A DNA stretch of 64,000 bases from the NCBI RefSeq assembly GCF_056746865.1, contig NZ_CM163382.1. One strand, written 5' to 3'. The position numbers were made by a program. This document shows, piece after piece, positions 51,001 through 57,000 of this stretch; within the stretch, counting starts at the first letter, position 1, and every line of letters starts with the position of its first letter.

Positions 51001-54000
51001 CGCGCGTTAACCCTCAGCGGGGCGCTGCCGTTTGTGCAGAAGCAGAAAAACGGCCTCAACTACATGATTCAGGAAGGGGGATTTGGCCTCTCTGGTGGTC
51101 AGCGGCAAACGCTGCTGCTGGCGCGGCTGCTCATCTCTCAACCCAATATCGTGCTGCTCGATGAACCCAGCGCCTCGCTGGACGAAATGGCGGAAGCGCA
51201 TTTAATCGAACAACTGAAACAGTGGATTGGCCATCGCACGCTGATTATCGCCACTCACCGCACGGCGATGCTGCAACTGGTGGACCGCATTATCGTGATG
51301 GATCAGGGGCGGATTGTGATGGATGGCGCGAAAGAGGCCATTTTGCGTGAACAGAGCGAACCCACGGCGCGACGGGTGGTGTTGCAGGAGAAGAATAAGG
51401 GGTCTGCCGCATGAACGGACAACTGCAATACAACCGTGGCCTGACTGAACCCCGCTTGCCGCGTTCGGCGCTGGCGGTACGCGTTACCGCTGTGATGCTG
51501 CTCTGTTTTCTCGGCTGGGCGTGGTACTTCCAGCTTGATGAAGTCACCACCGGCAGCGGCACGGTAGAACCCTCCGGGCGCGAACAGGTGGTGCAGTCGC
51601 TGGAAGGCGGAATTCTGTATCATCTCGACGTCAAGGTTGGCGATATTGTTGAACAGGGCCAGCCACTGGCGCAGCTTAACCGCACCAAAACGGAATCCGA
51701 CGTCCAGGAAGCAATGTCGCGGCTGTACGCGGCGCTGGCAACCTCGGCGCGGCTGCGGGCGGAAGTGAGTAATAAACCGCTGGTCTTCCCTGACGAACTG
51801 AATAAATTCCCCGAACTTATCGAGTCGGAAACGGCGTTGTACAACACTCGCCGCGATGGGCTGAACAAAGCCACCACCGGGCTGACGCAGGGGATTAGCC
51901 TGGTCAACCGCGAACTGGCGATGACCCAGCCGCTGGTAAAACAGGGGGCGGCGAGCAGCGTTGAAGTGCTGCGCCTGCAACGCCAGGCCAATGAACTGGA
52001 AAACAAACTCAGCGACGTGCGCACGCAATACTACGTTCAGGCGCGCGAAGAGTTAGCAAAAGCCAATGCGGAAGTGGAAACCCAGCGTTCGGTGATCCGT
52101 GGACGGGAAGACTCCCTCACCCGGCTCAACTTTACCGCGCCGGTACGTGGCATTGTTCAGGACATTGACGTCACCACGGTTGGCGGCGTTATTGCCCCCG
52201 GTGGTAAACTGATGACCATCGTGCCGCTGGATGAGCAACTGCTGATCGAGGCAAAAATCTCCCCGCGCGATGTGGCGTTTATCCATCCGGGGCAAAAATC
52301 GCTGGTGAAAATAACCGCCTACGATTACTCCATCTACGGCGGCCTGCCGGGAGAAGTGGCGGTGATATCACCAGACACCGTGCAGGATGAAGTACGGCGC
52401 GATGTTTATTACTATCGGGTGTACATTCGCACTTTCAGCAACCATCTGGAAAATAAAAGCAAACAGCAGTTTCCGATATTCCCCGGTATGGTGGCGACGG
52501 TCGATATCCGCACCGGCAAAAAAAGCGTGCTGGATTATCTGTTGAAACCCTTTAACAAAGCACAGGAGGCGTTGCGCGAACGATGAACATTAGCGATGTA
52601 GCAAAAATTACCGGCCTGACCAGCAAAGCCATTCGCTTCTATGAAGAGAAGGGGCTGGTGACGCCGCCGATGCGCAGCGAAAATGGTTATCGAACCTACA
52701 CGCAGCAGCATCTCAACGAACTGACCTTACTGCGCCAGGCGCGCCAGGTGGGCTTTAACCTGGAAGAGAGCGGCGAACTGGTGAATCTGTTTAACGATCC
52801 GCAGCGTCACAGTGCCGACGTCAAACGTCGCACCCTGGAGAAAGTGGCGGAGATCGAGCGACATATCGAAGAACTGCAATCCATGCGCAACCAGCTGTTG
52901 GCGCTGGCGAATGCCTGCCCTGGCGATGACAGCGCCGACTGCCCGATTATCGAAAATCTCTCCGGCTGCTGTCATCATCGGGCGGGGTGAAAATCAGTTA
53001 ATCCCCGTTTGCACCGAAAGAATATGCTGCAAACTTTCTACCATAATGCGCCCCGACTGAAATAAGCCTTCCTGGATTTCGTTGTTAACATTCACAGCGT
53101 GAACCAGGGAGGCTAATAACACCACTTGCAAGAAGGCAAAAATAAACGCACCGATAATCATAATATGCGTCAGGGGGATTTTCCTTTGCTCTTTCATTTT
53201 AAATAACCCACAAACTGACCTTCCTTCATTAAGGCGACTTTTCCCGTGTGGTGATAAACAATGACGTTATAAAGACCTGACTGATAAACAGTGGCATCTT
53301 TATTGTCTTCATCAATTGCACATAATGAATCATTGAGATAAGCAAAGTTCTTACTGCTCATTCTAAAGGTCATGCCAAATCCTTTATAAATAGATTTTTT
53401 AGCGGCCTGGGCATGTTGTGCGGCTTCTGCATTTTTAAATGCCTGCGCTTCTGATGCACTTAAAATAGCCGCCTGACGCTGTTGTTCTGCGAGATAACAG
53501 GTGTCATGGCTGACGCCCTGCGCCTGGCAATCTGCGATGCGGGAAGTGGGTGAACTACAGCCAGCCAGTAATATAACCGCCAGCAGGGAAAACGATTTAA
53601 TGGAGCTATTCATCATTGTTAACCTTAAATAATGTACGGAAAATTGCGAATAAGAAATTGCTGTTAAAATTAGAACGAATATCCCACGCCGACACCCGCA
53701 CCGAAATCAGATTGTGTATCCGCAGAAATACCTGCTTTAAGTACCGTATGCGTTCCGGCATTAAAAGATGTTCCTACAGACACCGCAGATTCACCGTTGT
53801 ACGTTCCCGCTCCCGCTGACACCATCATCAAGTCACCGGTTTTCACCTGTGGTTGTGAGGCGATAGCGATGGCAGATGCAGTTCCCGCATTGGCTTCTTT
53901 ACGATTGTCCTCAACTTCGTTTTTCAGAGAATCGAAATGGTTATTGAGCGTAGTAATCTGCTGGCTATTATCCGCTACTCGTTTTTGCGTGTTGCTTAAC

Positions 54001-57000
54001 TGCTGATGCGTTTGGGTTACGTCTTGTGTCAGGCTGTCAATTTGTTCATGCGTTTGTGTTGAGTCTTGCGCCAGACGCTGAATTTGTTCCCCGTACTGCA
54101 CACTATCGATATGCTGTTGCGTTGCCTGGTTAGTCGCCAGAGTATCTATTTTTTGTTTTTGTTCTGCTGCAGTACGCGCATTCGCATCATTTTGTGCTCT
54201 CAGTCCGGCGTTAACCATCTCTTGATAATGTGCGTTGGTCTGGGCATCGCCAAGTGCGGAAACCGTTTTTTGCGTCGCGTCGATTTGTTTCTGCTGATCG
54301 TCCATTTGTTGCTGCTGGGTGTCAGCTTGTGCCTGTTGCGCATTGGCAGCGGCTGTCTGTCTGGCGTCAATCATGCTCTGATATCGGGCGGCAGTCTGCA
54401 CATCCCCGGTGGCGGCAACGGTTTTCCGGGTTTCGTCGAGTTGTTGCTGCTGGTCAGCAATATCGCTGCGGTTCTGTTCGATATTATTTTTGTTTTCTGT
54501 CACAGCACCGGAAAGTTTGACGCCGTTCATCAGAGCGGTGTTGGCGTTAGCGTTGGCATGGTCAGCCGTTGACTGGGCATGTGCGACATCGCCTTTTATG
54601 TTGGTGACGTCTGACTGCACTGCGGAGACATCATTACGGGTGTCGGCGATGGCGGCTTTATTGGCATCAATATCCGTCTGCGCCACCATAATGGCGTGCT
54701 GCGCGTCATCAGCTTTCATTGAAGCCCAGTTGGCGACATGTTGTGCGTCCTGAATGGCGGTATCCTGCCCGTTGTCGCGGACGATCTGTTTTTGCTCGTT
54801 TGATGCCAACAGTTTCTGCTGGTCGGCAATATCGCTGCGGTTCTGTTCGATGTTGTTTTTGTTTTCTGTCACAGCACCGGAAAGTTTGACGCCGTTCATC
54901 AGAGCGGTGTTGGCGTTAGCGTTGGCATGGTCAGCCGTTGACTGGGCATGTGCGACATCGCCTTTTATGTTGGTGACGTCTGACTGCACTGCGGAGACAT
55001 CATTACGGGTGTCGGTGATGGCGGCTTTGTTGGCATCAATATCCGTCTGCGCCACCGTGATGGCGTGCTGCGCGTCATCAGCTTTCAGTGAAGCCCAGTT
55101 GGCGGCATGTTGTGCGTCCTGAATGGCGGTATCCTGCCCGTTGTCGCGGTCGGTCTGCGCTTGATTGGTTATCGGGTTCAGCGTATTGGCGGGCTGTACG
55201 GGAGAGGCAGCTGTATTTTCCTGAGGTGTCGTTGTCCGGTAATCATGCGCAATCAGATAATTTTGTGCGGCTGCACTATTCCCTGTCCTTTCTAAAAATC
55301 GACCAATTTTCTGATCAATTTCCGATTGCGACATTCCTGGCTGGATTGCCGTTAATTCTGTCGTTGCCGCCTCAACAGTATCACCCGCAAACGCAGATGG
55401 ACTTACCGCGGTAGCAACAACGACAGCCAGTAAAGACAGCTTTACAGTTTTCATGCATTTTTTCTCTTTCAAAGTAAGTCACATATTTGTTTCTATAAGC
55501 AACGTAAAACGTTGTTATAAGAATTAATCTGCGTTGCAATTTGATCGAAATCTACGCCGCCATTTGTGTGATGTAAAGCGCATTTTTGTCTGGTGTAAGC
55601 GTAAACATCACCAATAAGAAACAAAAAATGTTTCTTATATAAATAAAATCGAAAATCATTTTGTGCTCTTTCAATGTAAAAAAGAGTAAAGACTTGTTTT
55701 GATAAGCGAAATAAATTCTGTTTCTGGACTAAACGTGAAGCGGTTCCTGATGTGTGCTAAAATGCGTTTCTTTGATAAATCTCAATTTTTAAGAGGTTTA
55801 CGCCAGGCAGGAAAATTTAAATGAATGAATTTGAGAAGATTTTTAATGAAATGAATCTGGACCGGGCATTGCTACCGATCCTTTTTCGTTCGAACCGGTC
55901 AACAGTGTGGAAATATTTAAGTGGCGATAGTACGGCTCCTGCCTCAGCTATGTCACTGATTATGCTGTTGCAGTTAATCCAGAAACGAAACCCCGATCTG
56001 TTAGCCGAATGGTTAACGCTTTCTGATTTCACCATTCCGCCAGAAGTTTACCTGGACCAGCCTGATTACTGGAAAGGGTGGGTGTATACGCAACACAAGG
56101 TCAATAAAAACGTCCTGGAATATCTAAAAAAACATTATCCGGATGAAGACCAAAAAAACATGAATAAAGGTAGTGACGAGTAATTTGCCAATGCCAGTTA
56201 ATATAGCGGAGGCGGCCTACGATTCGGGCGCAGACTTCCAGGCATGATAAGACGCGCCCGCGCCGCATCAGGCATCAGCGCATAACCGCCGGATGCGGCG
56301 TAAACGCCTTATCCGGCCTACAATTCGGGCATATTTTGTAGGCATGAAAAGACGCGTCAGCGTCGCATCAGGCGATGACCGCACGGATGATCAGCGTTAT
56401 CCCTTCTATCGCAATGACTTCAACATGCGTACCTGCACCGAGATCCTCGCTGGCGCTGACAGGCCATGAACTGTCACCGACGCGCATATGACCTCGCCCG
56501 TTGACCAGCGGAGATTCCAGCACAAAACGTCGGCCAATAAGCTGCTGCCCGCGCTGGTTTAAATGACTGTCGCTGTGCTTTTGTTCGCGCACCCGCCGCG
56601 ACAACCATTTCCACCACAGCCAGGCGGCGAGCAGCGTCAGGACGGCAAACATCACCCCTTGCCACTCCCAACCCAGCGGCACCAGCCAGACCACCAGACC
56701 GGTAATCACCGCTGCCACGCCGCTCCACAACAAATAACCATTTCCGCCCAGCATCTCGGCTGCCAGCAGCAACCCGCCGAGACTGAGCCAGAAAATATGT
56801 GGATGAACGACCATTAACTCCATCATGGCTGAGTCCGTTTGTTGGCGCTGTCTTTCACCAGCTCGGCAATCCCGGCAATCGACCCCATCAGGCTGCTGGC
56901 CTCTAATGGCATCATCACTACTTTGCTGTTACTGGAGGAACCGATCTGCTGTAACGCTTCGGTGTATTTCTGCGCTACGAAGTAGTTCACCGCCTGAATA

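Follow-up and report, generated by a model that had tools for sequence, protein, structure and literature searches.

The 64,000-nucleotide stretch analysed here (contig NZ_CM163382.1 of RefSeq assembly GCF_056746865.1; hereafter the window) matches Escherichia coli CFSAN061770 (NZ_CP023142.1) at 100% identity and carries, between cueR and ybbJ, an accessory segment that encodes a putative YadA-type trimeric autotransporter, a lipoprotein, a small membrane protein and a divergent helix-turn-helix protein (Table 1). The segment spans 3,377 bp (52991-56367), since cueR ends at 52990 and the ybbJ stop codon starts at 56368. Its guanine-cytosine (GC) content is 46.6% compared with 55.3% for the whole window, and the autotransporter gene alone has 51%. 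K-12-type genomes lack the segment and have cueR and ybbJ directly convergent, with 0 bp between their stop codons. On the minus strand, the autotransporter gene is followed by the genes of the 140-amino-acid (aa) lipoprotein and the 67-aa membrane protein, the last two overlapping by 4 nt. An earlier, sequence-only reading of the window had described this lower-GC segment of about 3.4 kb, its absence from K-12, the three minus-strand genes, the divergent 120-aa open reading frame (ORF) and a terminal cluster of repetitive extragenic palindromes (REPs), and its account of the four-ORF gene content is right. What it missed is that the locus is already known: the segment is the catalogued O-island 29 and the autotransporter gene is the published gmrA. 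Its proposal of an integration hotspot found no support, as discussed below.

Table 1. Coordinates of O-island 29, its sub-features and its flanking genes in the window
Feature	Position	Strand	Remarks
cueR	52583-52990	+	ORF
67-aa ORF, small bitopic membrane protein	52994-53197	-	ORF
140-aa lipoprotein	53194-53616	-	ORF, lipobox LLAGC
600-aa ORF from TTG	53670-55472	-	ORF
Autotransporter from probable start ATG 55454, 594 aa	53670-55454	-	
YadA-type beta-barrel membrane anchor	53673-53852	-	residues 535-594, end ...GVGYSF
Heptad-periodic coiled-coil segment	53859-54152	-	residues ~435-532, leads into anchor
Tandem 369-bp (123-aa) stalk repeat	54443-55157	-	1.9 copies, 96% identity; Tandem Repeats Finder and repeat search
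Predicted Sec signal peptide	55386-55454	-	MKTVKLSLLAVVVATAVSPSAFA, cleavage before GD; read from sequence
Divergent control region	55455-55820		366 bp, 32% GC
120-aa ORF	55821-56183	+	ORF
REP/bacterial interspersed mosaic element (BIME) cluster	56184-56367		
ybbJ	56368-56826	-	ORF

The EDL933 locus tag provided the link to gmrA in the literature. Yang et al. 2018 (PMC5826968) define O-island 29 as 2,643 bp with z0638, z0639 (gmrA) and z0640, and report that GmrA binds the fliA promoter and activates transcription; several later reviews repeat this assignment and cite gmrA as a transcription factor gained by horizontal transfer. When their gmrA deletion primers are mapped on the genome of O157:H7, which carries O-island 29, they exactly flank the 338-aa coding sequence annotated in RefSeq as 'YadA family autotransporter adhesin', with the lipoprotein gene as z0638 and the 120-aa ORF as z0640. 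The primers used to clone gmrA run from ATGAAAACTGTAAACGTAGCTTTA (MKTVNVAL) to ...GYSF, so that the 'GmrA' expressed comprised the complete preprotein with its signal peptide and its anchor. Public databases name the autotransporter an adhesin, and the published function clashes with the domain layout found here. Our literature searches returned no mention of a YadA anchor in GmrA, no other name for this autotransporter and no remark on the conflict.

The sequence supports reading the large ORF as a trimeric autotransporter with a predicted signal peptide, a coiled-coil stalk and a YadA-type anchor. Judged by eye, the signal peptide combines basic residues with a hydrophobic core of 17 residues and an A-x-A motif for cleavage (mean hydropathy 1.97 for residues 6-22), and the same layout is kept in the proteins of O157, Escherichia whittamii and Pseudocitrobacter. 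Ala, Gln, Thr, Asn and Asp are abundant in the passenger domain; Pro is absent between residues 95 and 534 and Cys throughout, and just before the anchor (residues ~463-518) hydrophobicity recurs with a periodicity of 3.5-3.67 residues (z = 8.5 against shuffles). At the C-terminus, Pfam PF03895 YadA_anchor is matched over its full model (1-60 of 60; residues 541-600 in the numbering of the 600-aa ORF), which is the profile match that the sequence-only reading had proposed to look for and the sole significant Pfam match of both the window protein (E = 1.4e-11) and the O157 protein (E = 2.6e-11). In a search of Protein Data Bank (PDB) sequences the anchor aligns with those of Hia (2GR7) and AtaA (9VNJ; E = 1.6e-6), and the chain ends in an aromatic residue, Phe. 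No DNA-binding domain was found in the autotransporter with Pfam and NCBIfam.

Several other matches were rejected. Hits to SMC, Rad50 and DndD, the only ones with a nucleic-acid connection, reach 15-33 bits against curated cut-offs of 246-1,087 (22 bits against 567 for NCBIfam SMC) and are coiled-coil artefacts; SMC/Rad50-type matches are usual for long coiled coils. The PHROG matches labelled 'adhesin' or 'tail' cover the C-terminal stalk and anchor (the best from residue 389) and reflect phage-borne YadA-like proteins, with a prophage context absent. Kinship to UpaG/EhaG/SadA, Eib or Saa, with which the earlier reading had proposed a comparison, was not borne out among proteins with solved structure, where matches were limited to the Hia and AtaA anchors; fragments of NadA, EibD or SadA in the PDB, if any, went unmatched, because the search at E <= 0.01 returned anchor chains of these two proteins only. 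In overall layout, NadA of Neisseria meningitidis and the Eib proteins of E. coli are comparable to the island protein: at ~300-600 aa, they combine a small domain at the N-terminus with a long coiled-coil stalk and an anchor of the YadA type.

The stalk differs strongly between alleles. The window protein has ~245 residues more than the published O157 GmrA (594 versus 338 aa), which equals two copies of the 123-aa repeat, and while the signal peptide is shared and the anchor nearly identical, identity drops from 76% in the C-terminal 255 aa to 46% in the diverged N-terminal part. Intact ORFs with zero, one, two and three repeat copies occur in O157:H7 (338 aa), strain D8 (471 aa), the window (594 aa) and strain JSWP006 (703 aa), respectively, and E. 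whittamii carries another mosaic allele of 415 aa, also intact; the repeat was found in 350 of 5,426 genomes. The flanking island genes of the same lineages share ~96% DNA identity. Judged from these sequences, a conserved anchor combined with a modular, hypervariable passenger is the pattern expected of a surface-exposed fibre, not of a transcription factor. RefSeq/PGAP calls the repeat-bearing alleles as a 349-aa 'YadA-like family protein' (window 53670-54719) whose start is placed at a Met inside the second repeat, so that the signal peptide and the N-terminal 245 aa are lost.

The lipoprotein consists of a helical N-terminal part and a beta-rich C-terminal domain and is probably located in the outer membrane, since it has Ser at +2. 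It has no match in Pfam at E <= 0.1, and matches to TraV, TraQ and XAC1346, all far below cut-off and confined to the signal-peptide/N-terminal region, were discarded. The 67-aa protein, for which no match was found in Pfam, NCBIfam and PHROG, has a basic N-terminus (KEQRK), one hydrophobic helix at about residues 14-32 (best 19-residue Kyte-Doolittle window 2.65 at residues 14-32) and a C-terminal tail of ~30 aa that is predicted to be periplasmic.

The divergent 120-aa ORF folds as an XRE-type helix-turn-helix, in line with the character ascribed to it earlier. A significant Pfam helix-turn-helix match was not found (best MqsA_antitoxin, E = 0.12), neither was any match in NCBIfam and PHROG, and the family is tiny, with 19 cluster representatives among 1.84 billion proteins. 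It differs from the XRE/Cro-C1 regulators Aca2, Aca1, HigA2, C.AhdI and the C-terminal domain of MqsA by its own 50-aa helical C-terminal extension. The control region that separates it from the autotransporter gene is conserved in alignments as far as Pseudocitrobacter. GTTTCT occurs in it five times, four times as TGTTTCT, and a perfect palindrome, ATAAGAAACA-N5-TGTTTCTTAT, lies at 55614-55638; all of these are candidate operator sites. Four of the seven occurrences of TGTTTCT in the window fall inside this region, a number reached by none of 20,000 dinucleotide-preserving shuffles of it (mean 0.13).

Both island ends were found, single-copy and chromosomal, in 1,415-1,416 of 5,426 complete E. 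coli genomes (26%), so that O-island 29 is accessory but common; this quarter includes O157:H7, O55:H7, O145:H28 and major extra-intestinal lineages. Beyond E. coli, loci were collected from lipoprotein homologues, their contigs and one scan of species-representative genomes and then analysed with tblastn and hidden Markov models, yielding 21 loci of other species with a full-length lipoprotein. A YadA-anchor ORF lies just upstream of the lipoprotein gene on the same strand in 16 of them, among others in E. whittamii, Pseudocitrobacter, six Rahnella species, Yersinia aleksiciae, Enterobacter and Pantoea. We found no description of this conserved autotransporter-lipoprotein pairing in the literature searched. 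Together with the regulator, the pair recurs as a conserved set in Pseudocitrobacter, Rahnella, Yersinia and Enterobacter, and the 67-aa gene is confined to Escherichia and Pseudocitrobacter, its homologues in other species following the lipoprotein gene directly in E. whittamii and Pseudocitrobacter only. In two Pseudocitrobacter loci (L007 and L013, ~4138-6671) the four-gene module is found between fetA and qmcA, displaced by one gene pair from its E. coli position, in unchanged orientation to its neighbours and with ybbJ and cueR overlapping. In Pseudocitrobacter faecalis (L005, 1090-9936), an extra 588-aa gene of unassigned family separates autotransporter and lipoprotein, and the stalk of the autotransporter has a collagen-like stretch of G-x-y. 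About 1.3 kb downstream of this module, which may be carried by a mobile element, is a gene for a 628-aa serine recombinase.

We read O-island 29 as a compact four-gene surface-protein module composed of a fibre, a partner lipoprotein, the 67-aa protein and a regulator, with an indirect effect of gmrA on motility and an old origin followed by losses, and we assign this reading a probability of about 0.72. By analogy with type Vc secretion, the fibre precursor would be exported by Sec and its barrel inserted via the beta-barrel assembly machinery (BAM). Three chains with four strands each would form one 12-stranded outer-membrane barrel, through which the stalk would be threaded and displayed as a coiled-coil fibre whose length is set by the copy number of the 123-aa repeat. 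The gene order suggests that the lipoprotein and the translationally coupled 67-aa inner-membrane protein could be dedicated partners of the fibre, with a role in assembly, stability or anchoring. All three island genes studied by Yang et al. 2018 (PMC5826968) drop together in RNA sequencing upon HeLa contact.

Known helpers of trimeric autotransporters are SadB for SadA and TpgA for AtaA, the only two listed in a recent global screen for such helpers; this screen required a YadA head domain, which would place the headless family described here outside its dataset. One of the closest known parallels is SadA-SadB of Salmonella and E. coli (Grin et al. 2014, PMC3953254). There too, a trimeric autotransporter of enterobacteria shares its operon with a small lipoprotein dedicated to it, whose N-terminal part is helical and whose C-terminal domain is rich in beta structure, and K-12 has likewise lost the unit entirely. 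However, the island lipoprotein gene is located downstream rather than upstream of the autotransporter gene, its product carries Ser instead of Asp at +2 and is probably an outer- and not an inner-membrane protein, the island adds the 67-aa membrane protein and the divergent helix-turn-helix gene, and its fibre is short and without YadA head. AtaA-TpgA of Acinetobacter sp. Tol 5 shares the downstream position of the helper gene in one operon, but TpgA homologues contain BamE and, in some, OmpA peptidoglycan-binding domains, neither of which was found in the island lipoprotein (Pfam, E <= 0.1). A TpgA-like helper was therefore rejected, as was a SadB-like one, given the Ser at +2 and the lack of a detectable sequence or fold match to SadB or YajI. 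By sequence, the lipoprotein family is different from both, and if the large protein is a surface fibre, a conserved partner of this kind would offer a new route to study the assembly of short trimeric autotransporters.

A number of observations weigh against the module as we see it. Pfam finds no YadA head, neck or stalk family in either the window or the O157 protein; a YadA head is not obligatory in the trimeric autotransporter family. The helper role of the lipoprotein and the 67-aa protein is proposed from gene order, and five of the 21 lipoprotein homologues are without an autotransporter gene beside them. Promoter-like sites in the control region are no commoner than in shuffled sequence, which is why no promoter is claimed, and a terminator scan of the region likewise gave counts not above those of shuffled sequence. 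The other observations are those of Yang et al. 2018 (PMC5826968). Binding of GmrA to the fliA promoter was reported from gel-shift assays, which included a negative-control fragment, and from chromatin immunoprecipitation with quantitative PCR, and our reading offers no account of either result. Deletion of gmrA led to a loss of flagella that was complemented, with deletion and complementation phenotypes covering eight strains, and K-12 carrying gmrA became more motile. Deletion of O-island 29 left adherence to HeLa and Caco-2 cells unchanged, so that these assays gave no sign of adhesin activity.

The best-surviving alternative concerns the origin of the island. Across cueR, the window contains a type I secretion locus with a TolC-type gene, a 6,925-aa SiiEA-like adhesin, an ABC transporter and HlyD, and the start of cueR overlaps the hlyD stop by 4 nt (52583-52586). 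The sequence-only reading took this locus and O-island 29 for two independent adhesin systems on either side of cueR and concluded that the site is an integration hotspot. Both loci are indeed present, yet they are nested and not independent: hlyD-bearing genomes essentially always carry O-island 29, whereas genomes with O-island 29 and without the type I secretion locus exist. A chimeric query representing the combination of hlyD with a near-empty site (hlyD 3' end, cueR and K-12-type ybbJ) was covered to at least 80% in only 2 of 5,426 genomes, and in the one of these that was inspected, PKF11, the insertion sequence IS1 has replaced the inside of O-island 29.

If cueR-ybbJ were an integration hotspot, O-island 29, like the type I secretion island, would have been inserted by several independent horizontal transfers, and Yang et al. 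2018 (PMC5826968) proposed four gains. The patchy distribution (26% of genomes) and a GC content below that of the flanks fit such a history, as do the presence of another cargo, a 407-aa orphan gene, between cueR and ybbJ in Nissle 1917 and MS1170 and the occurrence of the same module at other chromosomal sites in Pseudocitrobacter, once beside the large serine recombinase. However, no integrase, tRNA gene or att-type flanking direct or inverted repeat other than the REPs was found among the ORFs of the segment and in the repeat search, and insertion by a mobile element was rejected on these grounds. In E. whittamii these same sites are occupied by all three at once: the type I secretion locus, the 407-aa gene and O-island 29. 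Moreover, every listed genome without the type I secretion locus retains the same ~100-bp hlyD 3' remnant fused to cueR and annotated as a pseudogene (e.g. L003 1907-2004; L009 207-304), so that the absence of this locus, the K-12 state, is a deletion with one shared end point. The nested pattern and the IS1-mediated internal deletion in PKF11 likewise fit an ancestral composite region lost piecewise. On this comparison of sequences, stepwise loss of such a region explains the data better than an insertion hotspot, which we consider unlikely; the module looks old in Escherichia and repeatedly lost rather than recently inserted.

Two genes at or near this site deserve a separate remark. The 407-aa orphan gene is full-length in 311 genomes and has no match in Pfam (L004 2409-3632; L009 709-1388; L014 ~7620-8942); in strain JNE120442 it lies together with O-island 29 between cueR and ybbJ and is frameshifted. 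In this strain the ORF of the SiiEA-like adhesin runs through 6,925 aa without interruption (window 28471-49248), and the giant-adhesin orthologues of O157:H7 and enteroaggregative E. coli (EAEC) 042 are reported to be frameshifted in the EAEC 042 genome paper (PMC2808357).

A second alternative would deny the lipoprotein a helper role and make it a periplasmic protein with a protective task of its own, such as a lysozyme inhibitor of the MliC/PliC type, whose gene happens to share the operon of the fibre. Its resemblance to MliC/PliC is weak and at the level of a generic barrel, and beside it stands the recurrent pairing with the autotransporter, which in Rahnella woolbedingensis (L019, 5155-9733) is present as two consecutive autotransporter-lipoprotein pairs, the pair having therefore duplicated as a unit. 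We regard an independent protective role as distinctly improbable and retain the lipoprotein as a putative partner of the fibre.

Least probable of all, and only a slight chance in our view despite the binding, deletion and motility data cited above, is that the large protein acts as the transcription factor GmrA as published, because the cloned gene encodes a signal peptide as well as a full YadA anchor with a terminal Phe, has no DNA-binding domain detectable with Pfam or NCBIfam, varies strongly in a stalk that expands through repeats and is conserved beside a gene for a periplasmic lipoprotein. In the published constructs, the N-terminal histidine tag precedes the signal peptide and the C-terminal FLAG tag follows the terminal Phe of the barrel; tagged GmrA may be mislocalised, since both tags sit on the export and barrel signals. 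We infer that sub-threshold coiled-coil matches of the SMC/Rad50 kind are the likely source of the 'putative DNA-binding domain' that the paper took from the Conserved Domain Database (CDD). Most likely, gmrA affects fliA and motility indirectly, e.g. via envelope or surface signalling, and not as a cytoplasmic transcription factor would; Yang et al. 2018 (PMC5826968) themselves allow that the motility effect could be indirect. If the surface fibre is real, a node in the published flagellar regulatory network of enterohaemorrhagic E. coli needs re-examination, and a surface protein that is widespread in pathogenic E. coli and antigenically variable has so far escaped study in that role. With the locus itself already catalogued, the remaining interest lies in this conflict between sequence and published function, in the unrecognised helix-turn-helix regulator, in the conserved pairing of autotransporter and lipoprotein and in the polymorphism of stalk length.

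The REP cluster at the ybbJ end of the segment, noted already in the sequence-only reading, gives a match to Rfam naRNA4 (nucleoid-associated RNA 4, which is REP-derived) at 56241-56318 on the minus strand with 71.9 bits, above the gathering threshold. This match reflects the REP/BIME cluster, and the Rfam scan found naRNA4 only and no riboswitch or leader. Two 34-nt direct repeats (56240-56273 and 56340-56373) lie in the cluster. A 34-bp piece of it (query 3706-3739, window 56288-56321) matches alone elsewhere, and the 4.2-kb query that includes the cluster has a median of 22 matching places per E. coli genome. The last REP also reaches into ybbJ: in island-bearing strains the stop codon and the last Ala codon of ybbJ are located within it (window 56340-56397), and the protein ends in ...RAVIA instead of the ...RAVSS of K-12, which is without a REP at this position.

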